NCBI GenBank assembly: GCA_030643245.1 | Contig: DAOWME010000001.1 | Location: forward strand, 1 to 45,989 | Length of the DNA: 45,989 nt | Source of the DNA: Deltaproteobacteria bacterium | GTDB taxonomy: Bacteria; Desulfobacterota; UBA8473 | Direction: 5' to 3' | Shown here: one piece after another, positions 65 through 40,128 of the stretch | How positions within the stretch are numbered: position 1 is the stretch's first letter | Layout of the letters: every line of letters begins with the position of its first letter | Notes under the pieces: generated by a model | Told to the model about the DNA's origin: nothing | Database searches by the model: none | Seen by the model: the letters and a program-made list of their open reading frames with translations, nothing else | Position numbers and translations under genes: made by a program

Positions 65-295
65 TTGATAGATGGAAGATATATGCTATTAACTACGGTG
101 TATCCGGGGCAAGAAGTTACGCTTGTTGATATAAATGGAGGAAGGGGGATAAGGGCGAGACTTGCCAGTATGGGTTTGATACCCGGAGTAAAGCTCAGTG
201 TGTTGCGCACCGGGCCAGGCCCGGTAATGGTCGCGGTGAGAAATACCAGGCTCGCCCTCGGCCATGGGATGGCCCATAAGATTATAGTGAAGTAA
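65..295 (+). CDS. feoA: FeoA-family (SH3-like) ferrous iron transport accessory protein
   Basis: 76-aa ORF with an FeoA-like pattern (GQEVTLVDINGG..RLASMGLIPGVKLSV..GPVMVAV). GGAGG lies 4 nt upstream of the TTG start; ATG at 83 is an alternative start. Confidence 0.7.
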   Translation: MIDGRYMLLTTVYPGQEVTLVDINGGRGIRARLASMGLIPGVKLSVLRTGPGPVMVAVRNTRLALGHGMAHKIIVK

Positions 296-339
296 AAATT
301 TTTGAGCTAAAAGTTAGATTGGCCTAATATTTCCCACAG

Positions 340-564
340 ATGAAAGGAAATGAAGAGATAATCAAGATGATCAATCAAAAACTTAGCGAAATCCGGTGCA
401 GGAAGTGTAACCGACTTTTAATGAAGGGCGATGTGCTGCAGATAGAGATCAAATGTCCTAAATGCGGGTATATGCAGAAGCTGCGAGCAGATGGGGTCTT
501 GGGGGAAAAAATCCGAGAACTGAGAGAAGGAAAATATCTAGTTTTGCCGGTATCTGACGGTTGA
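340..564 (+). CDS. Com-family (Mu Com-like) zinc-ribbon protein
   Basis: 74-aa ORF with CxxC-N17-CxxC (RCRKCNRLLMKGDVLQIEIKCPKCG), as in Mu Com-type translational regulators. Confidence 0.5.
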   Translation: MKGNEEIIKMINQKLSEIRCRKCNRLLMKGDVLQIEIKCPKCGYMQKLRADGVLGEKIRELREGKYLVLPVSDG

Positions 565-571
565 ATAAACA

Positions 572-626
572 GGGCATAGGGCGAAAGGCTTAAGACTAGA
601 ACGGGAGAATCTAACCCTTATGCCTC
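572..626. repeat. Imperfect hairpin of the GGCATAGGG..AAGG / CCTT..CCCTATGCC repeat family
   Basis: gggcatagggcgaaagg ... aacccttatgcctc arms. Related hairpins occur at 10207-10291 and 43368-43408. Confidence 0.4.
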
Positions 627-876
627 TCAGGCAAATACAAGAACCCTCCGAGGGTCAGAGAAGAAAAGAGGCTTGCGAAGCCCGGCCTATGGAAGAATAA
701 TCGACTTGGCTTTTTTATTCTTATAAAGGGGAAGAGGTGAAAGGTTATATTATTTTCCCCGTGATGCGCAGTTTGCTAAGTTACAAAAGATTTAGAAGAC
801 AAAAATGGTCTGACGAAAAAGGTGAAAGAAGAATAGCTTTAATATAACCACTAAAATAGTAGGAAAGGAGTATGGA

Positions 877-2145
877 ATGACGACAATCAAGAGAAGTTTT
901 GTTATATTTGCAGTCACCCTCAGCCTGAGCATGTTAGCTGCGACACAAGTGGCCATGAGCCAGGAAATCTCCAACTACGAGCTGATGAAGGAAGTAACGA
1001 GATTGAAAGTAAAGACCGATCAGCTTGAAGCTCAGATCAAAGGGGAGATGCCGGGAGAATCAGGGGCAGGGGAAAAAGAGCATTATCACAGCGTCAAAAG
1101 CCTGGCTGATAGAGTCCGCAGGATTGAGGGTCAAGTGAAAGAGGGTGTGCTGGGAAACTGGGCCGACAGAATAGAACTGAGCGGGCTCATAGAGATCGAA
1201 GTCGGTTATGAGGACCTCGATTTTGACGATTCCGCCCAGTCTGATAAGGAATCGAGCGACATCGTCCTTGCAACGGTTGAGTTGGGCGTTGATGTTGATA
1301 TTGCGAAGCATGTCAAGGGCCACGTTCTCTTTCTATGGGAAGAAGACGACACAGAACCGGTTGACGTGGATGAGGGGATTATCACCATAGATGGAGAGGA
1401 TGTGGCGCCCGTTTACCTCAATGCAGGGAAAATGTATGTGCCTTTCGGAAATTTTGAAAGCCACTTCATCAGCGACCCGTTGACACTGGAGCTGGGAGAG
1501 ACAAGGGAGAGTGCTCTTAATCTCGGATTTGCGAATGAAATGTTTGACGTCTGTGTCGGCGCTTTCAACGGCGACATCGATGAGACAGGAGAAGACAACC
1601 ATGTGGAGACCTATTTTGTCGGCGCAACATTCACCCTTCCGGAAGGGACAGCGTCAGACCTTGGGTTGACGGCCGGAGCGTCCTACATATCCAATATCGC
1701 CGACAGTGACAGCCTCCAGGACGAGGATGGTGTTGGCCAGAAGGATGAGTCTGGCGCTAAGATCCAAGAGATCAAAGACTACGTGGGTGGAGCGAGTCTT
1801 TTTGTGAGTCTTTCTTTAATGGATCAATTCTTCTTGGAGGCCGAATATCTTGGGGCCACCGAGAGTTTTGAGGCCGGTGAATTAGGATTTGACGAGGGCG
1901 AGTCATGCAGGCCGAGTGCCTGGAATATTGAGCTTGCCTATGCAGCCGCCGAGAACCTTGAGTTTGGGGTCAAGTATGAGGGCAGTGATGATTGCGGGGA
2001 TTTTCTTCCGGAAAGCCAGTATGGCGCTATCGTAAGCTACAGTCTTTTTGAGAACACCTCACTTGCGCTTGAATATCTCTATGGGGAATTCGAGAATGAC
2101 GATGAGAGGAACTTGATCACCTGCCAGCTCGGCATAGAATTCTGA
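877..2145 (+). CDS. Outer-membrane beta-barrel porin-like protein (LbtU-like siderophore/iron porin family suspected)
   Basis: 422 aa with a signal peptide (LSMLAATQVAMSQE) and an N-terminal coiled coil. Alternating acidic/aromatic beta-strand pattern and a C-terminal ...QLGIEF (terminal Phe typical of OMPs). AAAGGAG SD 6 nt upstream. Confidence 0.55.
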   Translation: MTTIKRSFVIFAVTLSLSMLAATQVAMSQEISNYELMKEVTRLKVKTDQLEAQIKGEMPGESGAGEKEHYHSVKSLADRVRRIEGQVKEGVLGNWADRIELSGLIEIEVGYEDLDFDDSAQSDKESSDIVLATVELGVDVDIAKHVKGHVLFLWEEDDTEPVDVDEGIITIDGEDVAPVYLNAGKMYVPFGNFESHFISDPLTLELGETRESALNLGFANEMFDVCVGAFNGDIDETGEDNHVETYFVGATFTLPEGTASDLGLTAGASYISNIADSDSLQDEDGVGQKDESGAKIQEIKDYVGGASLFVSLSLMDQFFLEAEYLGATESFEAGELGFDEGESCRPSAWNIELAYAAAENLEFGVKYEGSDDCGDFLPESQYGAIVSYSLFENTSLALEYLYGEFENDDERNLITCQLGIEF

Positions 2146-2153
2146 TCATTAAG

Positions 2154-2339
2154 ATGATTGCCGTTGTTTTATTGCCGGCTGCCGGGTATCTCTTTCACAA
2201 ATACTATTTGGCTTTCACAAAGAAGGAGACAGGGTGTGGCTGCGTATACTGTAGCACCAAGACCGGAGAGGGGAACTGCTCCTGCCTGTCACTTACTGTG
2301 AACAATGGAATGGAACAAATACCAGATGACAAAGAATGA
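2154..2339 (+). CDS. FeoB-associated Cys-rich small membrane protein (putative)
   Basis: 61 aa with one N-terminal TM helix followed by a Cys cluster (GCGCVYCS..GNCSC). This architecture matches the family named that way. No clear SD. Confidence 0.45.
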   Translation: MIAVVLLPAAGYLFHKYYLAFTKKETGCGCVYCSTKTGEGNCSCLSLTVNNGMEQIPDDKE

Positions 2340-2401
2340 ATGCAGGATGTGGTGGGCGCAGCCCACCCCACATACTTCGTCCTAAGGAGTGAGGTTATAT
2401 A

Positions 2402-2683
2402 ATGCCGAATCGTGATGGAACAGGGCCACCTGGAAAAGGAAAGGGCATGGTGGGACAGGGCATGGGTGTGTTAGAGGACCAGTGTCCTGAATGTGGGGAG
2501 GAAAGGCTTCATAATCTAGACTCCGGCCGGAGGGCAAAAGAGGTCGGCTGGGGAGTCGGAGCAGGCCCCGGGGGATTCTGCGTATGCCTAAAGTGCAACA
2601 AAGAAGTTAAGCATATTACGGGTACGCCGTGCAGTGAAATGAAATGCCCTGATTGCGGCGCGCCGATGGCACGGAAACTTTAA
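2402..2683 (+). CDS. DUF5320-like protein with two CxxC zinc-ribbon pairs
   Basis: N-terminus MPNRDGTGPPGKGKGMVGQGMG resembles the DUF5320 signature (MPxxDGTGPxGxGP). CPEC...CLKC and CPDC motifs. GGAG upstream. Confidence 0.5.
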   Translation: MPNRDGTGPPGKGKGMVGQGMGVLEDQCPECGEERLHNLDSGRRAKEVGWGVGAGPGGFCVCLKCNKEVKHITGTPCSEMKCPDCGAPMARKL

Positions 2684-2813
2684 GAAGAAAAGAGACCTTA
2701 TAGACTTCGGGAAAACCGGAAAGTTAGCTGGTTCAACCCTAAATAGCCCAGTATAAAGTTGTTCGCTGTGGCTAAATTAACTAATAAAATCAGCATGTTG
2801 TCTCAAAATAAAC

Positions 2814-2840
2814 TTGACAAAATATCGGGGGGGGTATACG
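2814..2840 (+). promoter_or_regulatory. Sigma70-like promoter candidate with a G8 tract in the spacer
   Basis: TTGACA (2814-2819), a 15-nt spacer containing gggggggg (2827-2834), then TATACG (2835-2840). Lies immediately upstream of the ATPase operon. Confidence 0.3.
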
Positions 2841-2841
2841 A

Positions 2842-3141
2842 ATGAGATGCAACGATTACCAAAGAATCTGTGGAGGGGATATTGGGAATGAGAAAGATTT
2901 CCCTTCGGGGTTTTTTCTTCCGCTGGCCTTTGTTCCTCGGGAGACAAAAAAGGTTAAAGTTGTTCGCCTTCTTGGTTCATCTGACACAGATGATTGGCCC
3001 TTGGGCCTTGAGGTGTCTATCGGGGAGGTGTTTCGCTTGTTACGACAGGCTGCAACCGGAGGATGGACCGTAGAGACAGGTGGTGCGAATTTTACTATTA
3101 GCGCCGAGTTGGCCAGGAAGTTGTTGGTGCAAACACTATGA
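2842..3141 (+). CDS. FeoA-like small protein (start uncertain)
   Basis: The C-terminal ~75 aa (VKVVRLLGSSD..LGLEVSIGEVFRLL....FTISAELARKLLV) follow the FeoA pattern. The stop overlaps the ATG of the next gene (ATGA). The annotated ATG sits right after the putative -10, so the true start may be downstream or non-canonical. Confidence 0.45.
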   Translation: MRCNDYQRICGGDIGNEKDFPSGFFLPLAFVPRETKKVKVVRLLGSSDTDDWPLGLEVSIGEVFRLLRQAATGGWTVETGGANFTISAELARKLLVQTL

Positions 3142-5390
3142 AAAAGGACATCCAAAAATCTATCAAAGTCCTCCATAGCATTCCAGGCAGGATGCGGCTG
3201 AAGGTGAAATCCGTCCGATCTTCCCATGAACGGGCTTATATCATTGAACACTTTGTATCGAAGCATTCTCCGGTTATAAAGGTGGAAGCACGCCCAATTA
3301 CCGGTAGCGTGATACTTTTTTATGATCCCGAGAGAGCGGACCCTGATGCTATAATCGACCTTCTCCGGAAGGCATTAACCGTAAGCATGGATACCCCCCT
3401 TTCACTTTCGTCATCAAGTAACCCGGCATGTGGCCTCGATTGCAAAGTTTGCCATCCAGTAACTTCATCCATAGAGAATAAATCTCTCTTGGGCAGACTG
3501 GTAGAGGTGCTGGCGCTCACCGCCTTTATGGTTTATTCTTTTATAAGAAACTTTATTTTCAAATCCCCCTTTTCCCAGGGGCCGTTCACCATTATGGCCG
3601 GTTTAGCTGTTGTGGCAGCCATCCCCCTCTTTCGCCATGCACTGGATGATTTGCAACGAGGGAAGAGCATGAGCCTGTTCCCATTTCTAGCCTCCACCTG
3701 TGTCCTCGCTCTCTTTCTGGGCGAGACAATGACAGCGCTGGAAGTGATCTGGATTTTGCGGGTGGGGATGCTCTTAGAGGATTATGTAGCTGAGCGGTCC
3801 CGTAAGGCCATAAGCGAAATCCTTCAGGTGGCCGCAAAGGACACTTATGTTCTAATAGATGGGATAGAGGTTGAGATACCCGTGGACGAGGTCAAGGAGG
3901 GAGATATATTGGCCGTCCATACCGGAGAAAAAATCCCGGTGGATGGTGTTGTGCTGAGAGGGGAGGCCATGGTGGATGAGGCCCATATCACAGGACGGGT
4001 CGAGCCTCAGATACGCAAGGCCAAAGATCGGGCCTTTGCAGGGACCATCGTCCAGGAGGGAGTAATATTCATCCGGGCGGAAAAGGTGGGAGATGATACC
4101 TATCTTTGCCGTATCCTTCATCTTGTTGAGGATTCGCTGGCCAATCGCGCGCCTGTAGAGAAACAGGCAGACATCCTGGCGGCCCGGCTTTTTCGACTCG
4201 GGGTCTTTGCTACGTTAGCTGTTCTCCTGTTAACAGCGGACCCTCTACGGGCCTTCACAGTTATGCTCGTCATGGCCTGCCCGTGCGCTACTGTGCTTGC
4301 CGCTTCAACTGCCGTGACCGCGGCTTTAGCCAATGCCGCGCGTAACCATATACTCGTGAAGGGAGGTCTTCACCTGGAGAGGGTGGGGAAGGCAGACTGT
4401 TTCTGCTTTGATAAGACAGGGACTATTACCGCAGAGATTCCCCAAGTGATAGAGGTAATCCCACGGGCGCCAAAACAGACCGAAGCCCATGTACTCGCGT
4501 TGGCTGCCGTAGCTGAGATGCACAATGAGCACCCTATGGCCAAGGCCGTGGTCAATGCCTCCAGCAGCTATGGTATTACACCGGAGCCCCACGCGGTCTG
4601 TGAATTTGTATTGGGACGGGGGGTTAAGGCCATGATGGATGGAAATATGATCCTTGTGGGGAACACCAGGTTCCTGGAGGAGGAAGGTGTCAGCACCGCA
4701 TATTATAAAGGCAAGGCTGATAAAAATATATCTGCCGGGCATACGGTCCTCTTTGTGGCCAGGAACAAGAAGCTTCAGGGGATGATAGTTGTGGCCAACA
4801 CAATAAGGCCCAATGCCAGGGCCGTGCTGGACTGGCTTAGAAAGGATGGCGTATCCGCCCTCTATCTTGGGACCGGGGATACGGAATCCGTGGCAAAGTT
4901 CATTTCCGATACCCTCGGTTTTGACGGCTATCGATCCGACCTGATGCCAGAAGATAAGTCCGAATATATTGAAAGGCTTGAGGATGACGGTATGTCTGTG
5001 GTTATGATCGGCGATGGCGTGAATGACGCATTGGCCCTCTCAAAGGCCGGCGTGGGCATTGCCATGGGAGCTGGTGGCGCTGAAGTGGCGATTGAGGCGT
5101 CGGACATTGCCCTGGTGGACAGCGAACTGGAACGAATTGTGAACCTGCGACAGCTCAGCCACAAGACGCTTGGGGTTATCGAAGAGAACTACTACCTCGC
5201 AGTCTCTACCAATATCATCGGTGTGTTAATGGGGGCGCTGGGATGGCTGACCCCTATAATGGCAGGGGGGCTTCATATTGTTCATACCCTTGGAATACTT
5301 ATGAACTCAAGTCGTCTCGTTGTATGGGAAGCCCCGGGATTAAAGGAGAAGGAATTAAGCGGAGTTAATCTCAATGATAAAGACGGATAA
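3138..5390 (+). CDS. Heavy-metal P1B-type ATPase A with an N-terminal IPGRxRLK (HMA_2-like) domain; actuator TGE replaced by TGR
   Basis: 750 aa with DKTGT, GDGVND, NEHP (HP motif) and TM CPC (MACPCAT). N-terminus has HSIPGRMRLKV. The A-domain reads ITGRVEP instead of TGE(S)xP (R codon 3996-3998). Confidence 0.9.
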   Translation: MKKDIQKSIKVLHSIPGRMRLKVKSVRSSHERAYIIEHFVSKHSPVIKVEARPITGSVILFYDPERADPDAIIDLLRKALTVSMDTPLSLSSSSNPACGLDCKVCHPVTSSIENKSLLGRLVEVLALTAFMVYSFIRNFIFKSPFSQGPFTIMAGLAVVAAIPLFRHALDDLQRGKSMSLFPFLASTCVLALFLGETMTALEVIWILRVGMLLEDYVAERSRKAISEILQVAAKDTYVLIDGIEVEIPVDEVKEGDILAVHTGEKIPVDGVVLRGEAMVDEAHITGRVEPQIRKAKDRAFAGTIVQEGVIFIRAEKVGDDTYLCRILHLVEDSLANRAPVEKQADILAARLFRLGVFATLAVLLLTADPLRAFTVMLVMACPCATVLAASTAVTAALANAARNHILVKGGLHLERVGKADCFCFDKTGTITAEIPQVIEVIPRAPKQTEAHVLALAAVAEMHNEHPMAKAVVNASSSYGITPEPHAVCEFVLGRGVKAMMDGNMILVGNTRFLEEEGVSTAYYKGKADKNISAGHTVLFVARNKKLQGMIVVANTIRPNARAVLDWLRKDGVSALYLGTGDTESVAKFISDTLGFDGYRSDLMPEDKSEYIERLEDDGMSVVMIGDGVNDALALSKAGVGIAMGAGGAEVAIEASDIALVDSELERIVNLRQLSHKTLGVIEENYYLAVSTNIIGVLMGALGWLTPIMAGGLHIVHTLGILMNSSRLVVWEAPGLKEKELSGVNLNDKDG

Positions 5391-5733
5391 AATAGATGAA
5401 GATAAATTGATCGAAGGTCTCCTTAGAATAGCGTCAAATATAAAGATTGCGCATCATATCCCCGGAAGGATCAGGCTAAAGGCCTCTCTTTCAGGACTTA
5501 ATAGTGTTCAGGAAATAGATATTAAAAAGATAGTGGGTTCTATCCCCGGAATTCTCAGTGTGCGAATCAATCCGTTTGGCATGTCGGCAATCATCGAATA
5601 CGATCAGGAGCAACTTCCATGTGACCTATGGGTGAGTCTTGGCGAGGTGGGTAAGAGGCCTGAAATTGCTGCCCGGGTTGTGGAGCGTCTGCAGACATTG
5701 TTTTCCGATAGAAGAAGATATGAACAGTTTTAA
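5374..5733 (+). CDS. Stand-alone IPGRxRLK (HMA_2-like) domain protein
   Basis: 119 aa. HHIPGRIRLKASL ... SIPGILSVRINPFGMSAIIEY matches the N-terminal domains of both flanking ATPases. Overlaps both neighbours (17 nt and 14 nt). Confidence 0.7.
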   Translation: MIKTDKIDEDKLIEGLLRIASNIKIAHHIPGRIRLKASLSGLNSVQEIDIKKIVGSIPGILSVRINPFGMSAIIEYDQEQLPCDLWVSLGEVGKRPEIAARVVERLQTLFSDRRRYEQF

Positions 5734-7969
5734 AATAGCCCACAGCCTTCCCTGGCGGACCAGATTGGTGGTGCCCTCTTTAGTTGGGGAAAGGGACGCT
5801 GCCCGGAAAGTAGCTGATGCCCTCTCTGAGATCCCCAGGATTTCCATGGCGGATGTACGTCCCGGAACCGGTTCCATTATCATTACCCATGAAGAAGGCT
5901 CCCTGAACCTTGAAGCTGTCAGGTCTGTGCTGGAAAGGGAAATACCTGTATACGAAAGGGGGAATACCGCTTTTGAATATAGCTGCTGCAGGGCGCCCCT
6001 GTCCCGGGCAGAAAACAGGCAGACACACGTGCCCGGATGGGTCCTTGCAATAACCGGCATCTACCTGGCTATCATGTGGTGTGGTCGCCTCATTTTTGGA
6101 AGATCGATGTCCCCTCGCGTCTTTTCTCTCCGAAGGATATTCGGTGTTCCTGCTTTAGTGGCCGTAGGGCTGAGTCTTCCCATCTTGAGAGATGGTCTTA
6201 GAGATTTGATGGAAAGATGGCGCCCCAATATGGATCTCTTAATCGTAAGTGCTTCATATCTCTCCATTTTAATGGGGGAGCCTGTTACAGCCATGGTAGT
6301 GCTCTGGCTGGTAAATCTATCCGAATGGTTGGAGGAAAAGACCCAGGAGAGAACCAGGAAAGCCATCAGGTCCATGCTTCGCCAGGAAGTGCGGGAAGCC
6401 TGGATAGTCAGAGACGGAGTGGAGCTTGAAATTAAAGTCTCAGAGCTGTCCGTGGGGGATATACTCAGCCTTAGATTCGGCAGCGCAGTCCCCGCGGATG
6501 GCACGGTTCAAGATGGCGAAGCCCTGGTGGATGAGTCCGCCATGACCGGCGAAGCCCTGCCGGTTTTCAAGACCTCAGGCGATCAAGTCCTTGCCGGAAC
6601 CACGGTGGAAATGGGGCATATCTTTTTACATGTCGACTCCGTAGGTGAAGAAACCCGCCTGGCAGCTATCATCCGTCTCATTGAAGAGGGAGAGGCCTCA
6701 AAGGCCCCGATCCAGCTTTCAGCCGAACGTTTCAGTGACGCAGTGGTTCCTGTCTCATTATTTCTTGCCCTTGCTGTCTTCTTTTTCACAAGGAACCTTC
6801 AACGGGCCATTGCAATGCTGATTATCGCGTGTCCTTGCGGCATTGGTCTTTCAACCCCAACGGCGCTGACTGCAGCCCTTGGTAATGCGGCCCGCAGGGG
6901 TGTTCTCATCAAAGGGGGACGAAACCTGGAGACCGCAGGCAAGGTAAATACCCTCGTCTTTGATAAGACCGGCACACTGACATCAGGCACCCCCAGGGTC
7001 TCACGAGTGATCACCCTGGACGATGATTACGAACCAATCCAAATCCTTCAACTGGCAGCCAGTTCCCAGATGCACTGGAAGCATCCCATGACCATTGCCG
7101 TTCTTGAGAAGGTCGGGGAAATAGAGATCGAAATCCCGCCCCATGAAGAGACTGAATTTATTATAGGACATGGGGTCCGGGCAAAGATCAACGGGAATGA
7201 AATTCTCGTGGGGAGCCACCACTTCATGGAGGATTATGAGGTGGACCATGAGGTCGGTCATGATGAGGAAAAGAGGATACTTGAAAAAGGAGAAAGTGTG
7301 CTCTTTGTGGCCTCCAACGGAAAGCTCATCGGACTTATAGGCGTGGAGGACCGGGTGAAGGATAATACAGCAATTGCTTTGCTGAGGCTGAAGGACCTCG
7401 GTGTCCGACATATTGTTATGCTCACCGGAGATCATAAGCGGAACGCAATGGCCATTGCCAGAGACCTGCCCATTGATGAGATCCAGTGGTCCCAGTCTCC
7501 CGAAGATAAGGCTGCGTGGATTGCACAATGGAAGGAACGCAACCCCGGCGACCTTGTAGCCATGGTTGGAGACGGAATAAATGATACCCCTGCCTTTTCC
7601 CGTGCAGATCTCAGTCTTGCCATGGGAGACACGGGTGCGGATGTGGCCATGGAACACGCGGCTATTGTGCTGCGCCGGGGTGATCTGGAGCTCGTAGCCG
7701 AGGCAATAGATCTCGGGCAGGCGACCCTTTCAACGATTTCTCAGAATTACAGTCTCTCCGTTGGCCTGAACCTGGCAGGCGTAGTACTGGCGGCTTTTGG
7801 TTGGCTTTCTCCTCTTGCAGGGGCATTTTTTCATAACCTTATCACCGTGGCAGTAGTAAGCAATTCAACAAAACTTCTCTTTTACAGTCCCGAATCTTCT
7901 CCCTCGGCCGGCGAAAATTCACAGGCCGTGGAAGAAAGTGAAGTGAGCATGGGATCAACCAAACCTTAA
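5720..7969 (+). CDS. Heavy-metal P1B-type ATPase B with an N-terminal HMA_2-like domain
   Basis: 750 aa from the internal ATG at 5720 (MNSFKIAHSLPWRTRLVV). Motifs: TGEALP, DKTGT, GDGIND, WKHP, TM CPC (IACPCGIGLSTP). The longer track ORF from 5639 is probably an upstream extension. Confidence 0.9.
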   Translation: MNSFKIAHSLPWRTRLVVPSLVGERDAARKVADALSEIPRISMADVRPGTGSIIITHEEGSLNLEAVRSVLEREIPVYERGNTAFEYSCCRAPLSRAENRQTHVPGWVLAITGIYLAIMWCGRLIFGRSMSPRVFSLRRIFGVPALVAVGLSLPILRDGLRDLMERWRPNMDLLIVSASYLSILMGEPVTAMVVLWLVNLSEWLEEKTQERTRKAIRSMLRQEVREAWIVRDGVELEIKVSELSVGDILSLRFGSAVPADGTVQDGEALVDESAMTGEALPVFKTSGDQVLAGTTVEMGHIFLHVDSVGEETRLAAIIRLIEEGEASKAPIQLSAERFSDAVVPVSLFLALAVFFFTRNLQRAIAMLIIACPCGIGLSTPTALTAALGNAARRGVLIKGGRNLETAGKVNTLVFDKTGTLTSGTPRVSRVITLDDDYEPIQILQLAASSQMHWKHPMTIAVLEKVGEIEIEIPPHEETEFIIGHGVRAKINGNEILVGSHHFMEDYEVDHEVGHDEEKRILEKGESVLFVASNGKLIGLIGVEDRVKDNTAIALLRLKDLGVRHIVMLTGDHKRNAMAIARDLPIDEIQWSQSPEDKAAWIAQWKERNPGDLVAMVGDGINDTPAFSRADLSLAMGDTGADVAMEHAAIVLRRGDLELVAEAIDLGQATLSTISQNYSLSVGLNLAGVVLAAFGWLSPLAGAFFHNLITVAVVSNSTKLLFYSPESSPSAGENSQAVEESEVSMGSTKP

Positions 7970-7979
7970 GGAGGTAAAT

Positions 7980-8954
7980 ATGGAAAAAAACAAGAATATT
8001 CGAGAGAAAACGTTGGGCCCGGGTGGAGCCCCAATGGCAGGACAAATGGGGGTGGTTGCCGGACCCGGCTCCGGGTCTGTGATGGAAGGCCATGGTGTGA
8101 GGCCTACACAGGTTGAAACTCCGGCGGCAGGCAACTGTGACCAGATGCATTCGGGAGCTGATCCCTGGCAGGGTAGCCAGCCCCAGGGACAGAATCCGGG
8201 CAACGGACAGACCGGGTTTTCAGGCGCGAATCCTGGTCAGCCGGGTCCCACTGGAATGCCCACAGGGCAAACCGGCTTTCAACCCGCAGGGAACGACCCC
8301 CAGGGACAGATTGGTAATATGGGAGGAGCATCTCCTCCCGGTTCTTTCCAGACCGGACCATCCCCTGGCCAGTTTCCAGGCATGGGTCAGGCAGACGCTC
8401 CCGGCATGAACCCCGGTCAGATGTCATTTTATCCGGGAGCTCATCCGGGGACACCCCCCCAGGCAAATGGGGGCATGCCGGCAGGAAGCGCTCATTCCAT
8501 GGGCCCATATCCAGGTTATCCGGGATCTGGTCAGATGGGGGTTCCCGGTGTGCATCCGGGACAGACCGGCTACCAGCCAGGTTGGGATCCTGGCGCCGGT
8601 GTTCAAGGACCGGGCGGTATGCCGGGGATGGAAACAAATCCTCACATGGGTTCATCTATGGAAGGACATGGCTCCAGTCACATGGGGGCGGACGCCCACC
8701 ATATTTATCATGACGAAAACCGTTTCGGCCAGGTTGCCGACATGGTGGGACGTTTCCTCAAGGGTGAGGCAAACACCGATGATATTGTCAACGGCCTTTT
8801 TAGTCTCAACTTTCGGGATGATCAGTTCTGGAAAGGGGCCATAGCCGGTGTTATTGTGGCCATGCTTCTCAGCAGCGACATGGTGAAACAGGGCCTGGCC
8901 AAGAGTTTTGGCGCTGTTTTCCAGAAGGGTAAGGATGAGAAAGAAGGCGCTTAA
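7980..8954 (+). CDS. Gly/Pro/Gln/Met-rich low-complexity protein with a C-terminal YtxH-like amphipathic/TM anchor
   Basis: 324 aa with a strong AAGGAGG SD. About 230 aa of PG/QG/MG repeats with His/Met patches (MEGHG twice). The C-terminus NFRDDQFWKGAIAGVIVAMLL.. is paralogous to ORF 9573-9929. Confidence 0.7.
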   Translation: MEKNKNIREKTLGPGGAPMAGQMGVVAGPGSGSVMEGHGVRPTQVETPAAGNCDQMHSGADPWQGSQPQGQNPGNGQTGFSGANPGQPGPTGMPTGQTGFQPAGNDPQGQIGNMGGASPPGSFQTGPSPGQFPGMGQADAPGMNPGQMSFYPGAHPGTPPQANGGMPAGSAHSMGPYPGYPGSGQMGVPGVHPGQTGYQPGWDPGAGVQGPGGMPGMETNPHMGSSMEGHGSSHMGADAHHIYHDENRFGQVADMVGRFLKGEANTDDIVNGLFSLNFRDDQFWKGAIAGVIVAMLLSSDMVKQGLAKSFGAVFQKGKDEKEGA

Positions 8955-8994
8955 TGACCGGGTCAACCGGCTATAAGCAGATAATAGGTAACCA

Positions 8995-9113
8995 TTCACC
9001 TCACTGCAAAGTCGCAAAGAGCGCAAAGGAATACATGAAGTGACAAAAGAAGAAGATAATCTTTCAAAGGAAATTTCTTTAAAACTTTGCGCTCTTTGCG
9101 CCTTTGCGGTGAA
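8995..9113. repeat. Long inverted repeat (~27-bp arms, ~55-nt loop) inside the operon
   Basis: cactgcaaagtcgcaaagagcgcaaag (about 9002-9028) versus ctttgcgctctttgcgcctttgcggtg (9085-9111), with 2 mismatches. Lies between the stop at 8954 and the start at 9142. Confidence 0.75.
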
Positions 9114-9141
9114 CTATTAGGATAATAGAAAGGAGTCAGAT

Positions 9142-9537
9142 ATGTCAAATCACCCTCACCCTCATAATTTACAAACAACCCCGGCGAGTTATCATGTTTA
9201 CAAATCTTCCACGAGACCTTATTCCGGCACGACGCTCTTGAACGCAGGGATCTTTGGAACCATTGTGGGAGGAACAGCCGCCCTCGGAATGAATCTACAC
9301 AAGGTCCGCGACAACGAGATGACTGCAAAAGAGGCCGTTATCGACAGCCTTGCTAAAGGCGCGGGTGCAGGCGTGGCTACAGCGGCTGCCACTGCTGTTG
9401 CATCCTCAGCAGGTGGCGGTGGCCTTCTCTCTCTGGCCTTTATGGTGGCAACTGCCACAGGAGTCGGTTATGTTCTGCATTCAGTGGGGAAATCGGTTTC
9501 TGAAAAGGTAGTCAGCACTTCGGAGAAATCATCATAG
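9142..9537 (+). CDS. MamC (Mms13/Mam12)-like two-TM membrane protein
   Basis: 131 aa with an AAGGAG SD. GIFGTIVGGTAALGMNLHKVRDNEMTAKEAVIDSLAKGAGAGVATAAATAVASSAGGGGLLSL aligns by eye with MamC [63 protein letters not shown] (recalled from memory). Confidence 0.6.
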   Translation: MSNHPHPHNLQTTPASYHVYKSSTRPYSGTTLLNAGIFGTIVGGTAALGMNLHKVRDNEMTAKEAVIDSLAKGAGAGVATAAATAVASSAGGGGLLSLAFMVATATGVGYVLHSVGKSVSEKVVSTSEKSS

Positions 9538-9572
9538 GGAAGTTTCAGTCTTTTAAAGAAAGGAGCAAAGAA

Positions 9573-9929
9573 ATGATTAAACACCATACACTTAATCCTT
9601 CTCCCGATATGTATCCCATGAACCAGCCCGGTCAAATGCTCAATGATCCCCGTTCGCATGACGCCAATCTACAGAGAACAGATTACACACAGATGAGCAC
9701 ACCTGCTGATACTTCCATCTTAGGCGTTAATTTCCATGACCAGCAGTTCTGGAAAGGGGCATTGCTGGGAGCGGCAGTTACACTCATTGTTACTAATGAA
9801 ACCGTGCAAAAGGGAATCATAAAGACCGTGGCGAAGCTCTATGGTTCAATGCAGAGCGGTGTGCAGGAGATAAAGGAGAAGTTTGAGGATGTTCAGGCGG
9901 AGCTGAAGCATAACGCCAAAGAGAAATAA
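9573..9929 (+). CDS. YtxH-like small membrane-associated protein, paralogue of the C-terminus of ORF 7980-8954
   Basis: 118 aa with an AAAGGAG SD. VNFHDQQFWKGALLGAAVTLIV..VQKGI matches LNFRDDQFWKGAIAGVIVAMLL..VKQGL. The N-terminus is rich in P/Q/M/N. Confidence 0.65.
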   Translation: MIKHHTLNPSPDMYPMNQPGQMLNDPRSHDANLQRTDYTQMSTPADTSILGVNFHDQQFWKGALLGAAVTLIVTNETVQKGIIKTVAKLYGSMQSGVQEIKEKFEDVQAELKHNAKEK

Positions 9930-9971
9930 CAAAAGAAGAGTTGAGGTTGCGACAAAGGTAGGGAAGATAAA

Positions 9972-10160
9972 GTGAATAAAAACACGATTAAGAGTGTGAC
10001 AAAGGCAGGAATGGTAGTCTCCTTGGCCGGTCTTGTGTTGACCGCTCTTGGAAAGGGCCGGCGATCCAAATTGCAACACACATGGGCCGGTATTTCACTT
10101 ATCGGCTTTTCCGTCTGGCATTACAACACATACCGGAGTCCCGGCCGGAGGCAGACATAA
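9972..10160 (+). CDS. Small two-TM membrane protein (hypothetical)
   Basis: 62 aa with a GTG start. Two hydrophobic helices (GMVVSLAGLVLTAL, WAGISLIGFSVW) separated by a basic loop KGRRSK. Weak SD. Confidence 0.4.
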   Translation: MNKNTIKSVTKAGMVVSLAGLVLTALGKGRRSKLQHTWAGISLIGFSVWHYNTYRSPGRRQT

Positions 10161-10206
10161 AACAACAATTTGAATGTATATGAAATCCCATGTGTAAAAG
10201 GTAAAA

Positions 10207-10291
10207 GGTATAGGGTGTAAGGATCAAGGATCAACATGCAAGCTGTATAGTATGGTCAATTCCTTAAGCCGTGTACCTTGAACCCTATGCC
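10207..10291. repeat. Hairpin of the GGCATAGGG..AAGG repeat family
   Basis: ggtatagggtgtaagg (10207-10222) pairs with ccttgaaccctatgcc (10276-10291) at 13/16, with a ~53-nt loop. Confidence 0.45.
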
Positions 10292-10330
10292 TCGTTTAGC
10301 TTTAATATACTATCTATGGGAGGTAATACA

Positions 10331-10507
10331 ATGGTACATTTACCTTTATTCTTCAGTCCCATCGGATGGATTGTGCTTGGCGCAGCAGGTTACCTATTAT
10401 ATCAGTCCGGTAAAAAAGCAGGGGGAAAAGAAAGAAACGAAAATATCCTGTCCGGTCCTTCAAAAGAAATACAGGAAAGAGAACCGTCCGAGCGAAAGGA
10501 GGTCTAA
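10331..10507 (+). CDS. Small single-TM glycine-zipper protein
   Basis: 58 aa from the ATG at 10331 (GGGAGG 7 nt upstream). Sequence MVHLPLFFSPIGWIVLGAAGYLLYQSGKK followed by a charged tail. Confidence 0.55.
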   Translation: MVHLPLFFSPIGWIVLGAAGYLLYQSGKKAGGKERNENILSGPSKEIQEREPSERKEV

Positions 10508-10508
10508 A

Positions 10509-10781
10509 ATGTCAAATCCGGCTTTTTGGGTTGGGATAAGAACCCCCTTAGGCCTCCTGGCCATTGGAGGTTTAGGGTATATTCTTTACAAGATCGGTGG
10601 TAAAAAAAAGAACAGGTCAACGGAAGAGGATGAAGAAAGCCTTTCGGACAAGGCTGTAAAAGGCGCCATTAAGACTGTCTGTAAGGCCAAACTAGGGGTG
10701 GAAAAAGCCCTGGAAGAAAAAAAGAAACGGTTTTCTGAGATGTGGTCTGAGGCCAAAGAGGATATGCGGGAAAAGGGATAA
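10509..10781 (+). CDS. Small single-TM glycine-zipper protein, paralogue of 10331-10507
   Basis: 90 aa from the ATG at 10509 (AAGGAGG upstream). LGLLAIGGLGYILYKIGGKKK followed by a Lys/Glu-rich helical tail. Shares a G-x-x-GY(L/I)LY motif with the upstream gene. Confidence 0.6.
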   Translation: MSNPAFWVGIRTPLGLLAIGGLGYILYKIGGKKKNRSTEEDEESLSDKAVKGAIKTVCKAKLGVEKALEEKKKRFSEMWSEAKEDMREKG

Positions 10782-10918: not shown

Positions 10919-11083
10919 TTAGGGACGAGGCCGAAATAACTTCCTCAAGTTGGCGCTCAGATTTAGGTCAGATTTTTTCGATCTGAAAATACAAAACCAC
11001 AGGAATAGTCTTTCCTATTTCGAGGATTTTGTGTTTGAAGATCGGGCAAAGATGGCCTGAAGATAAGAAACTTCGTGGGGAAC
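10919..11083 (+). repeat. Intergenic hairpin repeat (MITE/ERIC-like), copy 1, right end degenerate
   Basis: ttagggacgaggccgaaataacttcctcaagttggcgctcagatttaggtcag... matches the other copies up to gatggcctgaagat, then diverges. Confidence 0.85.
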
Positions 11084-11122
11084 ACATAGGGGAACACAGA
11101 AGGATAATACAGGGCATTTGAC

Positions 11123-11175: not shown

Positions 11176-11252
11176 TGGTCGGGACGACTGGATTTGAACC
11201 AGCGACCCCCTGAACCCCATTCAGGTGCGCTACCAGGCTGCGCCACGTCCCG
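11176..11252 (-). tRNA. tRNA-Pro (anticodon GGG)
   Basis: 77-nt cloverleaf read by eye: CGGGACG acceptor, GCGC D-stem, CCTGA/ATGGGGT/TCAGG anticodon arm, GCTGG-TTCAAAT-CCAGT T-arm, encoded CCA. Confidence 0.9.
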
Positions 11253-11268: not shown

Positions 11269-11652
11269 TTACTCCAGAATGTCTCTTATTACCTTCAACT
11301 CGTTCTTTATGTCATCCAACAGTTCCCTATATCCCTCTCCAGAAAGAGTAAATTTTGCCTCTCTATCCTCCTGGGAATTGGACTTCCTGAGCTTCTTCTT
11401 GGCCCCAGCTATGGTAAATTTCTCATTGTAAAGCAGGTTTTTTATCTCTAATATTGATTCCAGGTCTTTTCGTATGTAAAGTCTCTGCCTGGACTTGGTG
11501 CGAGAAGGCTTGACCAGGTTAAATTCGGACTCCCAATACCTCAAGACGTATGGCTCTACACCAACAATCTCGCTTACTTCCCCTATCTTGAAATATAGTT
11601 TATCAGGTATGCCTAAACCCCTTTTGTCTGCCCCTTGCTCTTTATCTTTCAT
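11269..11652 (-). CDS. MerR-family transcriptional regulator
   Basis: From the internal ATG at 11652 (MKDKEQG..). [34 protein letters not shown] is a MerR HTH. It occupies the usual position after ihfA in this conserved block. Confidence 0.8.
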
Positions 11653-11829
11653 TTTATTTCTTTGAACTGTAAAAGTCAATGTCAATAAGACGGCGGCAGC
11701 AATTCTAATTAGTTTCCATCCAGTAATGTCACTTTTTCGCAACCTCCTGCGTGAGCCTGCGGGTTTGTTTGTGCAGCGTACGCGTCTTAACAGAACAGGC
11801 AACGAAAAAATATGTCGTTAATGAAGCGG

Positions 11830-12016
11830 TTAGGGTCTGTCATGGAATAAGTGTTGCATATGGGCGCTCAGATTTAGGTCAGATTTGTACGATCCGAAAA
11901 TGCAATACCGGAGGAATAGTTGAACCTATTTCGAGGATTTTGTGTTTGAGGATCGTGCAAAGATGGCCTGAAGATGAGATGCACAGATGTGATACTTATT
12001 CCATGACAGACCCTAA
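11830..12016 (+). repeat. Intergenic hairpin repeat, copy 2 (variant termini)
   Basis: The core matches the family. The terminal arms ttagggtctgtcatggaataagt / acttattccatgacagaccctaa are a perfect 23-bp inverted repeat that differs in sequence from other copies. Confidence 0.9.
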
Positions 12017-12097
12017 GCCACAATCAGAATTACCCACCAGAATCTACAGTGATCTTACCCACTCCCCATTAATGCAACGTACTATGATATGAGGATC

Positions 12098-15915: not shown

Positions 15916-16126
15916 TAAGGTGCGGGTCCGAAATAACTTCCTCAAGTTGGCGCTCAGATTTAGGTCAGATTTGTTCGATCTGAAAATACAAGACCACAGG
16001 AATAGTCTTACTTATTTCTAGGATTTTGTGTTTGAAGATCGGTCAAAGCCTGTCCTCGACCCCGATCGGGGGATGGCCTGAAGATGAGATGTACAAATGG
16101 GGAAGTTATTTCGGCCTCGCCCCTAA
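15916..16126 (+). repeat. Intergenic hairpin repeat, copy 3 (long form with a 26-nt internal insertion)
   Basis: Full-length copy between rplT and pheS. Carries the agcctgtcctcgaccccgatcggggg insertion that is also present in copy 5. Confidence 0.9.
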
Positions 16127-16248
16127 GCCACCTTTTCCCGTTGTCTAGAACGTTCCTCGATACCTAAAGCTAAAGTCTTCGCAGGGCGAATCTTGCGAAG
16201 AAGAAACCGTAAGGACATTTTTGATGATGGAATTTCTCAAGGTTGGTC

Positions 16249-24462: not shown

Positions 24463-25125
24463 TTACTGTCCCAGGCAGCCGCCTCCGCCTTGAGACGGAA
24501 CATAGCGAGGTCCATTGGGCAATGTAGAAAATGTCATGTTAATCACCCGTATCACGTAAGGTTCATATTCCTGCAAGGCAGCAAAGGACAGGTTGTCGAC
24601 CATGTCGACCATGTCATCACTTTCGAGTACAAACTTTTTCTCCGCGACCTCGTGCTCTGATTCCCAAATCTGTCCCCCGGTCCTTGCATCTATGAGTTGA
24701 AACCTGGCGCCCACTTTTACTGAAGAGTAAACCACCAAATAAGTGGTACTCCACTCCGTTACAGTCGCATACAGCAACGCATCAACATTGAGAAGCTCCC
24801 CTATCTCCAAGGGGGTCATGGAACCAAGTTGACCCGCCTCTCGTATGCCCTTTTGGGCGAGTAAGGAGTCGATCCCTGCGACCGCGGGTGTTGCGTAACC
24901 CTTACTGAGAATTATGCTGTAGAGCCTTGGTCTGAAAACACCGCCTGCATCCATGTCCGTGGTTTCATTCTGCACAGGCAACACGGCAATTGACATTGGC
25001 ATCTTATCCTGGTAGTCAGGAACATTACTGTGAGGGATTTTAATCGCACAACTACTGGGAAGAAAAAGGATAATTGAAAGAATGAAGATATGTCTTGCCT
25101 TCATCCCCGTCTTCCTGCTTATCAT
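24463..25125 (-). CDS. DUF799 (GNA1162-like) lipoprotein, copy 2
   Basis: From the ATG at 25125 (MISRKTGMKARHIFILSIILFLPSSC lipobox; GAGGAG SD). IAVLPVQNETTDMDA..VFRP....LSKGY.....ID.LL....I.EAGQL......E.G.LL.VDALLY.TVTEWST. Confidence 0.7.
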   Translation of the reverse strand: MISRKTGMKARHIFILSIILFLPSSCAIKIPHSNVPDYQDKMPMSIAVLPVQNETTDMDAGGVFRPRLYSIILSKGYATPAVAGIDSLLAQKGIREAGQLGSMTPLEIGELLNVDALLYATVTEWSTTYLVVYSSVKVGARFQLIDARTGGQIWESEHEVAEKKFVLESDDMVDMVDNLSFAALQEYEPYVIRVINMTFSTLPNGPRYVPSQGGGGCLGQ

Positions 25126-25888
25126 AGCAAACTCCTCTTCTGGTATATAGCCTCCAGTCCTCAAGAAACGTGAAAGAGCATACTGAACACCCCCCTTCAC
25201 CCATGAAAGGGTGGAGAGAAAACGGACAAATAAGTCTATCCCTCACTTTGCGAGAAATATGCCTGCGGTGCTTTCCAGGGTGGATATGCCTGTAACCGTT
25301 GGGTAACGTGGAAAATGCAGCATTGATAAGTTTCTTGACGTAAGGATCATATCTGCGCAAGAGAGCAAAAGTCAAGATCTCCTCTATGGCATCCTCATCC
25401 AACGAGAACTTCCATTCAGCAACTTCATGCTCCGATTTCCAGAGTTTCTGTCCTGTCCGCGTATCAAAGATCTGAAATCTGGCCCCTACATTTATTGAGG
25501 CGTAATTCACCAGATAGGTAGTACTCCACTCCGTCACCGTAGTATATAGCACCGCATCAACACTGAGGAGCTCCCCTATCTCGTGAGGGGTCATGGAACC
25601 AAGCTGACCTGCCTCCCTTATATCCCTTTCCAGGAGTTTTGAATCAATCACCGCTGTCTGAGGGGACAGATATCCTTTATGGGTAACCATATCAACCAGC
25701 CATGGTCTGAACACCTTCGGTGCGTCCATGTCCACGGTTTCATTCTGAACAGGCAACACGGCAATTGACGTCGGCATCCTCTCTTTATAATCCGGCGTCA
25801 CATAATGAGATATCCTCGGCACACAACCACTGAAAGTGAAGACCACCATTAAGAAGAAGAGGCTAAATTCGGGACATCTCACGTACAC
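25052..25888 (-). CDS. DUF799 (GNA1162-like) lipoprotein, copy 1, with an atypical ~80-aa C-terminal extension
   Basis: Lipobox VFTFSGC. Roughly 60% identical by eye to the downstream paralogue over the core. The tail past STLPNG overlaps the next gene by 74 nt. Confidence 0.65.
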   Translation of the reverse strand: MYVRCPEFSLFFLMVVFTFSGCVPRISHYVTPDYKERMPTSIAVLPVQNETVDMDAPKVFRPWLVDMVTHKGYLSPQTAVIDSKLLERDIREAGQLGSMTPHEIGELLSVDAVLYTTVTEWSTTYLVNYASINVGARFQIFDTRTGQKLWKSEHEVAEWKFSLDEDAIEEILTFALLRRYDPYVKKLINAAFSTLPNGYRHIHPGKHRRHISRKVRDRLICPFSLHPFMGEGGCSVCSFTFLEDWRLYTRRGVCYDKQEDGDEGKTYLHSFNYPFSSQ

Positions 25889-40091: not shown

Positions 40092-40128
40092 GTTAGGCCG
40101 CACATTTTCGCAGACGCACAAACAGTTA

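Follow-up and report, generated by a model that had tools for sequence, protein, structure and literature searches.

Can a ferrosome (fez) gene cluster dispense with FezB, the pump through whose sequence such clusters have been found? The question is raised by a run of genes at positions 65-10781 of contig DAOWME010000001.1 (Deltaproteobacteria bacterium, assembly GCA_030643245.1), a stretch of 45,989 nucleotides (nt) that is called the window here. The original prediction, made from this sequence without database searches, had proposed a ferrosome-like cluster rather than a plain efflux operon. Comparison with other genomes bears this out: orthologues of all genes of the cluster core follow one another in the same order where a true FezB is present, and published fez group motifs are matched. 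We put at roughly 0.6 the probability that the locus, as its sequence suggests, belongs to the large fez cluster family of Thermodesulfobacteriota, in a variant without FezB and its 240-amino-acid (aa) FeoA partner. The real departure is this absence of FezB together with the presence of a 'P1B6-like' pump with CPC and HNxxT motifs, and it was overlooked at first. Novelty had been placed in the large gene set and in a MamC-like protein, both of which are standard in described large fez clusters (Dde_0489-0496).

Layout of the cluster

The cluster consists of 15 co-directional open reading frames (ORFs) on the + strand, as tightly packed as first described but fewer than the 16 or so then counted, with its core at 2842-10781:

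65-295, +, FeoA-domain protein, 76 aa (Pfam FeoA 1e-18)
340-564, +, Com-type zinc-ribbon protein, 74 aa (Pfam Zn_ribbon_Com 2.4e-12)
877-2145, +, outer-membrane porin-like protein, 422 aa (Porin_O_P 21.3 bits, cut-off 20.9; Porin_4 2.4e-5)
2154-2339, +, Cys-rich small membrane peptide, 61 aa, weakly FeoB-associated-like (Pfam FeoB_associated E=0.0038, below cut-off)
2402-2683, +, zinc-ribbon / DUF5320-like protein, 93 aa (DUF5320 E=0.007; Zn_ribbon_8 1.4e-4)
2842-3141, +, 99-aa protein, possibly divergent FeoA/SH3-like (Pfam FeoA E=0.014, below cut-off)
3138-5390, +, ATPase 1 (A1), FezH-type P1B ATPase, 750 aa (Pfam, NCBIfam, motifs, tree)
5374-5733, +, stand-alone Arg-rich HMA_2 protein, 119 aa, FezD-like, group 3-1 (Pfam HMA_2 1.6e-8)
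5720-7969, +, ATPase 2 (A2), 'P1B6-like' (CtpC-type signature) P1B ATPase, 749 aa (motifs, tree, model)
7980-8954, +, long GxxxG protein, 324 aa, group 2-3-like (composition, alignment, orthologues)
9142-9537, +, MamC-homologous small membrane protein, 131 aa, FezF/group 4-like by position (NCBIfam MamC 1.8e-14)
9573-9929, +, short GxxxG protein, 118 aa, FezE/G-like, group 2-1-like (alignment, orthologues at E 1e-15 to 1e-35)
9972-10160, +, 62-aa conserved peptide (s62), group 3-3 position (orthologues in 14 other contigs)
10271-10507, +, single-transmembrane Gly-rich peptide, 78 aa, or 58 aa from 10331 (homologues in L015, L031, L032, L022)
10512-10781, +, single-transmembrane peptide with charged C-terminal helix, 89 aa (homologues in L015, L031, L032)

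All 15 ORFs are intact, and starts and stops overlap in the core. The 99-aa ORF overlaps A1 by 4 nt, A1 overlaps the 119-aa ORF by 17 nt, and the latter overlaps A2 by 14 nt with an A2 start at 5720; 10 nt separate the end of A2 (7969) from the start of the 324-aa gene (7980). The start at 5720 (749 aa) is the most likely one, because it keeps a conserved HxLxWRTR motif and agrees with the NCBI gene call (749 aa). The ENA annotation of the contig makes A2 15 codons shorter (734 aa), cutting off its Arg-rich motif, and leaves the s62 gene uncalled. Thus, with s62 missing and the A2 start misplaced (5720-5765), parts of the cluster are under-reported by automatic annotation.

Hallmarks of fez clusters

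According to Grant & Komeili (10.1101/2020.01.10.902569), FezB combines D[Y/F]SCA and HNxxT in its membrane helices with an N-terminal Arg-rich motif, and FezH is a second Arg-rich pump with other membrane sites. Gene names follow this 2020 preprint, and what is said of its locus tags, motif groups and tables is limited to the accessible part of its supplement.

The Arg-rich motif that fez clusters carry on a pump and on a small protein is present in A1 (HSIPGRMRLKVK), A2 (HSLPWRTRLVV) and the 119-aa protein (HHIPGRIRLKAS). HNxxT in the last transmembrane (TM) helix is found in A2 (HNLIT), A1 having HIVHT instead. Small hydrophobic GxxxG proteins are represented by the 324-aa and 118-aa proteins, which share FWKGAxxGxxxA in an alignment with 25 orthologues, and iron-homeostasis genes (FeoA/FeoB, Fur/DtxR) are associated with the cluster.

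As originally proposed, both pumps are CPC-type P1B ATPases, with CPC in TM4, and share with the 119-aa protein an HMA_2 domain that scores above the Pfam cut-off of 30 bits in each case (A1 41.6, the 119-aa protein 35.1, A2 32.0). The accompanying claim that a CxxC metal site is missing holds for the N-terminal HMA domain itself, but A1 has a CxxxCxxC motif in its linker (ACGLDCKVCHP, residues ~97-107, C-terminal to the HMA_2 domain). Such a linker motif, CxxxCxxC[HR]P, occurs in 7/9 A1 pumps borne in clusters, with a looser CKSCDC in an eighth.

Gene order in related loci

Loci for comparison (contigs with L numbers) were read in the DNA that flanks genes related to A2 and to the MamC-like protein. 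A scan of genome contigs with A1 gave three loci, of which L001 was useful, and the MamC-like alignment, run against metagenomes, gave 11, most of them short.

Clusters with FezB and without A2 are found in L008 (a 5.1-Mb chromosome), L010 (a 2.1-Mb contig), L011 (Ca. Magnetomoraceae) and L025. They contain A1, the HMA_2 protein, the long GxxxG protein, the MamC-like protein, the short GxxxG protein and s62, and then a true FezB (DFSCA or DYSCA plus HNxxT) and the 240-aa FeoA protein; of this arrangement, the partial contigs L024 and L026 cover the FezB end. A layout without FezB, with intact genes, recurs in four independent contigs, namely the window with its near-identical contig L016, L001, L012 (Desulfomonilaceae), which has the same full cluster as the window, and L030, which has A2 and the accessory genes and no A1 in its upstream DNA. 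The layout is kept at 45-62% protein identity among these contigs. A2 does not take FezB's place after s62 but precedes the long GxxxG gene, with A1 (or the HMA_2 gene) on its other side.

Additionally, three clusters have all three pumps: L015, L031 (Desulfobulbus, a 4.8-Mb chromosome) and L032 (Desulfobacter, a 5.5-Mb chromosome). Their order is FezB (DYSCA or DYSCV) with FeoA, two small - strand peptides, A1, the accessory genes and A2; the two peptides are homologues of the window's last two ORFs, and s62 is displaced or undetected in all three. L014 has both A1 and a pump of A2 type, accompanied by s62, the HMA_2 protein and three GxxxG proteins.

The closest named counterpart is the fez cluster of D. 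alaskensis G20, where Dde_0489-0496 run as an ACPCATV/HIVHT ATPase, group 3-1, group 2-3, group 4-1, group 2-1, group 3-3, FezB and a group 6 FeoA protein. The window shares with it the gene order, the FezH-type ATPase, the 105-120-aa Arg-rich HMA_2 protein, a long and a short GxxxG protein with the D-F-W-K-G-x-x-x-G-A motif, a group-4 two-TM protein, the group 3-3 peptide and FeoA proteins, with an iron regulator and feoAB nearby. Unlike G20, the window lacks FezB and the 240-aa triple-FeoA protein. It has an extra CPC/HNxxT ATPase between the HMA_2 gene and the long GxxxG gene, and a porin, a Cys-rich peptide, a DUF5320-like protein and a Com-type zinc ribbon upstream.

Both pump types also occur in Desulfomonile tiedjei DCB-1, where Desti_4191 (ACPCATV/HIVHT/HAIPGRMRVKVS) has the motif set of A1 and Desti_4193 (ACPCGVS/HNLIT/HTLDWRTRIKVP) that of A2. 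Table S1 of the preprint gives them as related Arg-rich ATPases, with Desti_4193 in the grey used for other ungrouped sequences. In the accessible part of the supplement neither has an entry in the FezB-species or fez-cluster tables, both standing in the ATPase tree table only, which is no more than suggestive.

Placement of the two pumps

Both pumps pass the generic heavy-metal P1B model TIGR01525 and TIGR01512, and both miss the CopA and ZntA equivalog cut-offs (283-364 bits against 1005-1316). In neighbour-joining trees, E. coli CopA and ZntA fall outside well-supported A1 (bootstrap 87-96), A2 (98-100) and FezB (100) clades, so that placement against ordinary exporters, which the original prediction had named as its own test, came out in its favour together with the conserved synteny to the small genes. 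The best matches in the PDB are CopA, at ~300-335 bits, and the closest solved structures are CopA and ZntA; no structure of a close pump relative was among the PDB matches.

ATPase 2 has a CtpC-type signature

A2 has the Arg-rich N-terminus given above, IACPCGIG in TM4, HNLIT in TM6 and an intact TGE in its actuator domain. The catalytic motifs are intact and invariant throughout the A2 family, and in the family alignment (n=47 sequences) C371-P-C373 and H705-N706 are likewise invariant. Relatives of A2 all combine [AT]CPC[GA], HNxx[TS] and an RTRI-type N-terminus, and grade into Streptomyces-type ACPCAA/HNTSS proteins; some of them are named 'manganese/zinc-transporting P-type ATPase C' in IMG. 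A link of A2 to the Streptomyces-type CPC/HNxSS clade or to FezB is unsupported (bootstrap 6-34). An AlphaFold2 model of A2 (predicted local distance difference test score, pLDDT, 83.8) predicts a beta-beta-alpha-beta-beta-alpha N-terminal domain and eight membrane helices; the TM count is taken from this model, Kyte-Doolittle counting being too crude for the two pumps.

Boudehen et al. 2022 define 'P1B6-like' pumps by CPC in TM4 and HN in TM6 and apply the term to CtpC; A2 has both motifs. The CtpC-PacL1 module of M. tuberculosis (PMC9374683, PMC13460109) consists of a 'P1B6-like' ATPase and a DUF1490 scaffold. A2 resembles CtpC in its Arg-rich N-terminus, CPC in TM4 and HN in TM6, is ~39% identical to actinobacterial CtpC-like proteins and, as in that module, is encoded with small proteins of one TM helix and a charged helix. 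Unlike the scaffold, the window's small proteins have no DUF1490 match and no C-terminal His-rich metal-binding motif, and unlike CtpC, A2 is paired with a FezH-type pump, a MamC homologue and iron-uptake genes.

In L013 (3925-13366), an A2-type pump adjoins a P2-type ATPase (Cation_ATPase_N/C) with an Arg-rich HMA_2 N-terminus. Beside them are encoded a DUF5132-like peptide, two HMA_2 proteins that stand alone, and cobalt/nickel uptake (CbiM/CbiQ/ABC). Arg-rich HMA_2 modules thus occur outside P1B pumps as well.

ATPase 1, assigned to the FezH type, has lost the actuator glutamate

A1 combines its HMA_2 N-terminus with MACPCATV in TM4 and HIVHT in TM6. Table S1 of Grant & Komeili (10.1101/2020.01.10.902569) has a motif group ACPCATV / HIVHT / HS[IV]PGRxRxK that includes Dde_0489 and Desti_4191. 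We infer that this group is FezH on the ground that Dde_0489 is the second, non-FezB ATPase of the G20 cluster, and without recourse to the colour key of that table. A1 is assigned to the FezH type because its motif class is common to Dde_0489 and Desti_4191.

The TGE motif of the actuator domain is changed to TGR (NGR in one) in 8/8 A1-type pumps of the alignment, and a motif search finds NGR at this site in the A1 pumps of L031 and L032. Among representatives at 50% identity, [TNS]GR occurs in 23; those listed all have A1-type motifs, with xCPCAT or xSPCAT and, where the C-terminus is present, HxxH[TS]. TGE is back among the representatives once the motifs shift to CPCAA/HNxST, and it is kept in A2, FezB, CtpC-like pumps, CopA and ZntA. 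FezH-type proteins retain DKTGT, TGD and GDGxND.

In SERCA and CopA the actuator glutamate is required for hydrolysis of the aspartyl-phosphate. By analogy, FezH-type pumps with TGR are probably unable to cycle normally. Because the catalytic TGE is replaced by TGR in all FezH-type pumps examined, FezH is probably an accessory dependent on a competent partner pump. A1 adjoins a FezB-type or A2-type pump in 12/12 clusters read, the partner's TGE being confirmed by alignment for those that are members of the tree set.

Five relatives of A1 (P0235, P0236, P0243, P0324, P0325) are 1600-1700 aa long, are matched by the query in three to four stretches and appear to be fused multi-ATPase proteins. 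Three of these (P0235, P0236, P0243) have an Arg-rich N-terminus and a degenerate or unrecognisable TM4 motif (CPS in P0235).

Small membrane and accessory proteins

The small ORFs are conserved elsewhere, as the original prediction needed them to be, and are thus more than chance reading frames. In the 119-aa protein, KIAHHIPGRIRLKAS matches group 3-1 (GIAHHIPGRLRVKFS in Dde_0490), and orthologues occur in L008, L010, L014, L015 and L025.

Composition confirms the 324-aa protein as rich in G, P, Q and M (23.5%, 14%, 9% and 7.5% of residues 1-255), and it contains 11 His. It has a C-terminal hydrophobic helix, LNFRDDQFWKGAIAGV, whose counterpart in Dde_0491 has the motif DFWKGALVGAAVVF; long GxxxG orthologues were found in 12 loci. 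The 118-aa protein joins a DQQFWKGALLGAAV helix to a charged amphipathic helix, GVQEIKEKFEDVQAE. It had been taken for a YtxH-like paralogue of the MamC-like protein; the alignment shows it to be a paralogue of the 324-aa protein's C-terminus instead. All GxxxG proteins share LNFRDDQFWKGAxxGxxxALLxTNxTVQK, to which the short ones add GVxEIKEKFEDVxAE, and the window's two match the group 2 motifs of Table S4 of Grant & Komeili. The YtxH likeness holds for part of the family (8/27 members match, best 2.8e-5) and is slight in the window's own protein (E=0.15); 7/27 match DUF5132, and DUF6110 is weakly matched too. DUF6110 is reportedly related to the PacL family (DUF1490) and encoded with P1B6 pumps (Boudehen et al.), and DUF1490 had no match among the window's proteins or the 27 members of the GxxxG family.

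The 131-aa protein is, by sequence, a homologue of MamC (Mms13; NF038051 / PF26373) and not an equivalog. It aligns over 85/97 model positions at 1.8e-14 and 53.8 bits against an equivalog cut-off of 100, bears the precomputed Pfam label PF26373 'MamC', and has 36/36 aligned relatives that match MamC at E<=0.001 (best 2.7e-19). MamC itself is a small protein of the membrane, its two TM helices joined by a loop. The MamC homology first proposed stands, and two TM helices are expected here by analogy with MamC and FezF. An AlphaFold2 model (pLDDT 57, three helices) left the topology unsettled and was not used.

In every locus read with enough flank, the MamC-like gene adjoins the same GxxxG genes and fez-type ATPases. 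The homologue belongs to fez-type clusters of non-magnetotactic anaerobes, unlike MamC of mamGFDC or mms operons. It stands at the position of the group 4-1 gene Dde_0492. Group 4 also includes S. putrefaciens Sputcn32_3195 in the tables of Grant & Komeili (10.1101/2020.01.10.902569), which we take to be FezF, going by its size and by the two TM helices that the preprint ascribes to FezF. In L031 (935-1291) and L032 (839-1258), a second MamC-like gene, a paralogue of greater divergence (E ~1e-7), stands immediately upstream of FezB.

Orthologues of s62 (E 1e-8 to 4e-23) occur in 14 other contigs. It has one hydrophobic segment above threshold and a second, AGISLIGFSVW, read from the sequence, and is probably a two-helix membrane hairpin. 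The 78-aa peptide has homologues beside FezB-FeoA in L015, L031 and L032 and after s62 in L022 (E 1e-10 to 1e-14). The 89-aa peptide is its paralogue, with homologues in L015 (2e-18), L031 (3e-19) and L032 (4e-16).

Iron-related genes upstream

The iron-uptake accessories named in the original prediction hold up unevenly. The FeoA-like protein at 65-295 is clear and the second one, the 99-aa protein, matches weakly; L001 has a clear FeoA gene at the position of the 99-aa ORF. Reading the 99-aa protein as a fragment of FezB's FeoA partner was rejected, there being no match to the 240-aa triple-FeoA family. The porin narrowly passes its cut-off, has a hydrophobic, signal-peptide-like N-terminus (residues 4-22) and has a homologue (1e-84) adjoining the L014 cluster. 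The FeoB-associated and DUF5320-like assignments are weak in the window itself. The 61-aa Cys-rich peptide weakly matches (0.0014) an ORF just upstream of an OprB-like porin gene in L010, and the L014 cluster has an orthologue of the DUF5320-like protein (4e-37) that bears a precomputed DUF5320 label. The Com-type zinc-ribbon protein had no orthologue among the other loci compared.

L016 is 99.89% identical to the window and reaches 8.5 kb further upstream. This DNA encodes feoA-feoB, a 108-aa gene, DUF4198, an ABC ATPase, DUF4857, RelB and a 100-aa DtxR-type (Fe_dep_repress) gene, after which the window's FeoA gene (65-295) follows. Iron-related neighbours of this kind recur in L008, L010, L014 and L031. 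The 100-aa gene (L016 8142-8444) has the DNA-binding Fe_dep_repress domain only, and to judge by domain content it and the stand-alone FeoA look like a DtxR split in two, minus the central metal-binding/dimerisation domain. L014 and L031 have a fuller DtxR-type form of 165-185 aa.

Positions 540-~730 of the window, comprising the 3' end of the zinc-ribbon gene and the porin leader, are 91% identical to L016 1-~190, a stretch 8.5 kb to the left in the same genome that immediately precedes feoA-feoB. This segment, duplicated before two iron-related operons, is possibly a shared regulatory region. The duplicated leader (540-730) matched no Rfam family and folded no better than shuffles, and promoter and terminator scans gave counts not above shuffles.

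Other features of the window

Downstream of the cluster are tRNA-Pro (11176-11252), a MerR-family gene (11269-11802), an HU/IHF (ihfA-like) gene and pheT/pheS. By its PheT sequence the source belongs with uncultured Thermodesulfobacteriota, the best named matches being 67-68% identical. The MerR-family gene is on the strand opposite to the cluster, grouped with the ihfA-like gene and pheST, and the remainder of the window holds - strand housekeeping genes where annotated.

An element of ~200 nt resembling a miniature inverted-repeat transposable element (MITE) has six intergenic copies in the window, with terminal inverted repeats of ~28 nt (TTAGGGACGAGGCCGAAATAACTTCC ... GGAAGTTATTTCGGCCTCGCCCCTAA). 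One copy lies directly after the cluster end, before tRNA-Pro, and an Rfam search with the repeat gave no match:

10921-11103, +, MITE-like copy
11832-12021, +, MITE-like copy
15918-16131, +, MITE-like copy
39907-40095, +, MITE-like copy
29952-30085, -, MITE-like copy
45874-45989, -, MITE-like copy

Two adjacent - strand ORFs, 24463-25200 and 25052-25888, share DNA segments that are 73-79% identical and 775 nt apart, which suggests a tandem gene duplication:

24632-24879 and 25407-25654, -, repeated segment pair
24923-25020 and 25698-25795, -, repeated segment pair

Interpretation

The sequence comparisons show homology, synteny, motifs and recurrence. That a compartment forms, which way and which metal is transported, and what each protein does are inferences, and the mechanism that they suggest can be put as follows. 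An iron/manganese-responsive DtxR-type repressor would control production of the small Gly-rich membrane proteins. The two GxxxG proteins, the MamC/FezF-like protein and the 62-, 78- and 89-aa proteins would assemble in and shape a membrane domain or vesicle. A2 would be the working pump, moving a divalent metal from the cytoplasm into this compartment. On the simplest reading A2, alone here in having a complete catalytic motif set, does FezB's job. The metal would most likely be Fe2+, favoured because of the FeoA, feoAB and DtxR context, with Mn2+, Zn2+ or Co2+ as possibilities. A1, lacking the actuator glutamate, is probably a slow or regulatory partner and not an independent pump. The Arg-rich HMA_2 domains of both pumps and the 119-aa protein may mediate recognition between components, and two candidates for contact with metal or mineral are the 324-aa protein, through its G/P/Q/M/H-rich tail, and the MamC-like protein, through its loop.

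Several points weigh against a ferrosome cluster of this kind. FezB with D[Y/F]SCA is absent from the window's + strand cluster and from the 8.5 kb upstream in L016, and it is the sole pump shown genetically to be needed for ferrosomes; a FezB gene could lie elsewhere in the same genome. CtpC of M. tuberculosis, the closest characterised relative of A2 by signature, is a plasma-membrane exporter of Zn (or Mn), and deep branching among the A2, CtpC-like and FezB clades is poorly supported (bootstrap 6-34). The effect assigned to TGR is carried over from other P-type ATPases. An IdeR/DtxR-box-like palindrome was not found, and the promoter regions gave no short inverted repeats. A stronger claim, that ferrosome-like compartments form without FezB and are loaded by a CtpC-type pump with a dephosphorylation-impaired FezH, possibly with a metal other than iron, is a tentative one that we regard as rather less probable than its negation.

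The CtpC signature of A2 (CPC and HN) raises the question of whether the locus encodes no organelle at all, and instead a membrane efflux platform like the mycobacterial 'effluxosome', in which a CtpC-like pump and small scaffolds export excess Zn, Mn, Co or Fe across the inner membrane and a porin releases it from the periplasm. The IMG names of A2 relatives, the eight-TM exporter topology predicted by the A2 model, the porin gene in the cluster and the layout of a GxxxG TM helix followed by a charged helix, with weak matches to YtxH, DUF5132 and the DUF1490-related DUF6110, all fit such a platform. However, DUF1490 itself is unmatched by the window's proteins and the GxxxG family, the MamC homologue is without counterpart in described PacL-Ctp modules, and the whole accessory set is common to FezB clusters, whose family makes ferrosomes experimentally. 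Iron-uptake neighbours (feoAB, FeoA) and a DtxR-type repressor also suit storage better than detoxification, and we consider the platform, the main rival reading and a plausible one given the A2 signature and the porin, unlikely. A plainer form of export, an ordinary Cu/Zn/Cd resistance operon with incidental small neighbours, could draw on the TIGR01525 and TIGR01512 matches, on CopA and ZntA as the closest solved structures, on CPC in TM4 and on the MerR-family gene at 11269-11802. It is very improbable given the unmet CopA/ZntA cut-offs, the HMA_2 domains without CxxC, the A1 pump without the TGE glutamate and a small-gene order conserved across distant genomes, and given that the MerR gene stands on the opposite strand with ihfA-like and pheST.

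The cluster might also be a decaying remnant of a three-pump fez cluster with no specific function left after loss of FezB-FeoA. In L031, L032 and L015, where all three pumps are present, A1 and A2 are surrounded by the same small genes, the window lacks both the FezB-FeoA240 pair and the second MamC-like paralogue, and MITE-like repeats and a tRNA gene flank the cluster end. Against decay, none of the 15 ORFs is disrupted and starts and stops overlap, four independent contigs retain the FezB-less layout at 45-62% protein identity, D. tiedjei has the pump pair, and A2 has intact catalytic motifs that do not vary within its family; we see little likelihood in such a remnant. MamC homology, and the relative in a Ca. 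Magnetomoraceae genome, could also point to part of a magnetosome gene cluster, to which we give next to no credence. The MamC score is below the equivalog cut-off, neighbours are fez-type in every locus read, and the accessible tables give group 4-1 genes, equivalent in position, for Desulfovibrio and relatives that are not magnetotactic. Precomputed Pfam labels of the flanks examined included no mamA/B/K/M/P/Q/E or mad gene; beyond these flanks the window was not scanned for such genes.

Meaning for ferrosomes and related membranes

The fez system, FezH and the Arg-rich, GxxxG and group-4 proteins are already published. The FezB-less arrangement, CtpC-type pumps in fez-type clusters, the TGR change in FezH and the MamC homology of the group-4-like protein were not described in the literature searched, where the ferrosome paper was used as a preprint. 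Nor did that search find anything linking MamC to fez clusters, although databases already label the family 'MamC'.

Ferrosomes, membrane vesicles in which anaerobic bacteria store iron, have been recognised as organelles only recently. The literature consulted treats FezB as the importer that loads them, and fez clusters have been found via FezB searches. Recurrent clusters without FezB mean that such searches miss part of the family. The exchange of FezB for a CtpC-type pump with the accessory proteins kept is a natural experiment on the components needed for the compartment, and ties the little-understood CtpC/'P1B6-like' pumps, important in metal resistance of M. tuberculosis, to ferrosome machinery. 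The clade-wide change from TGE to TGR offers a testable idea for the constant pairing of FezH with another pump.

MamC homology provides a sequence-level link between ferrosome and magnetosome membranes. If ferrosome-like compartments do form without FezB, they would connect ferrosomes with the mycobacterial PacL/CtpC 'effluxosomes', so far separate systems. Together with the MamC homology, this would point to a common toolkit of small Gly-rich proteins for ferrosomes, magnetosomes and P-ATPase membrane platforms.

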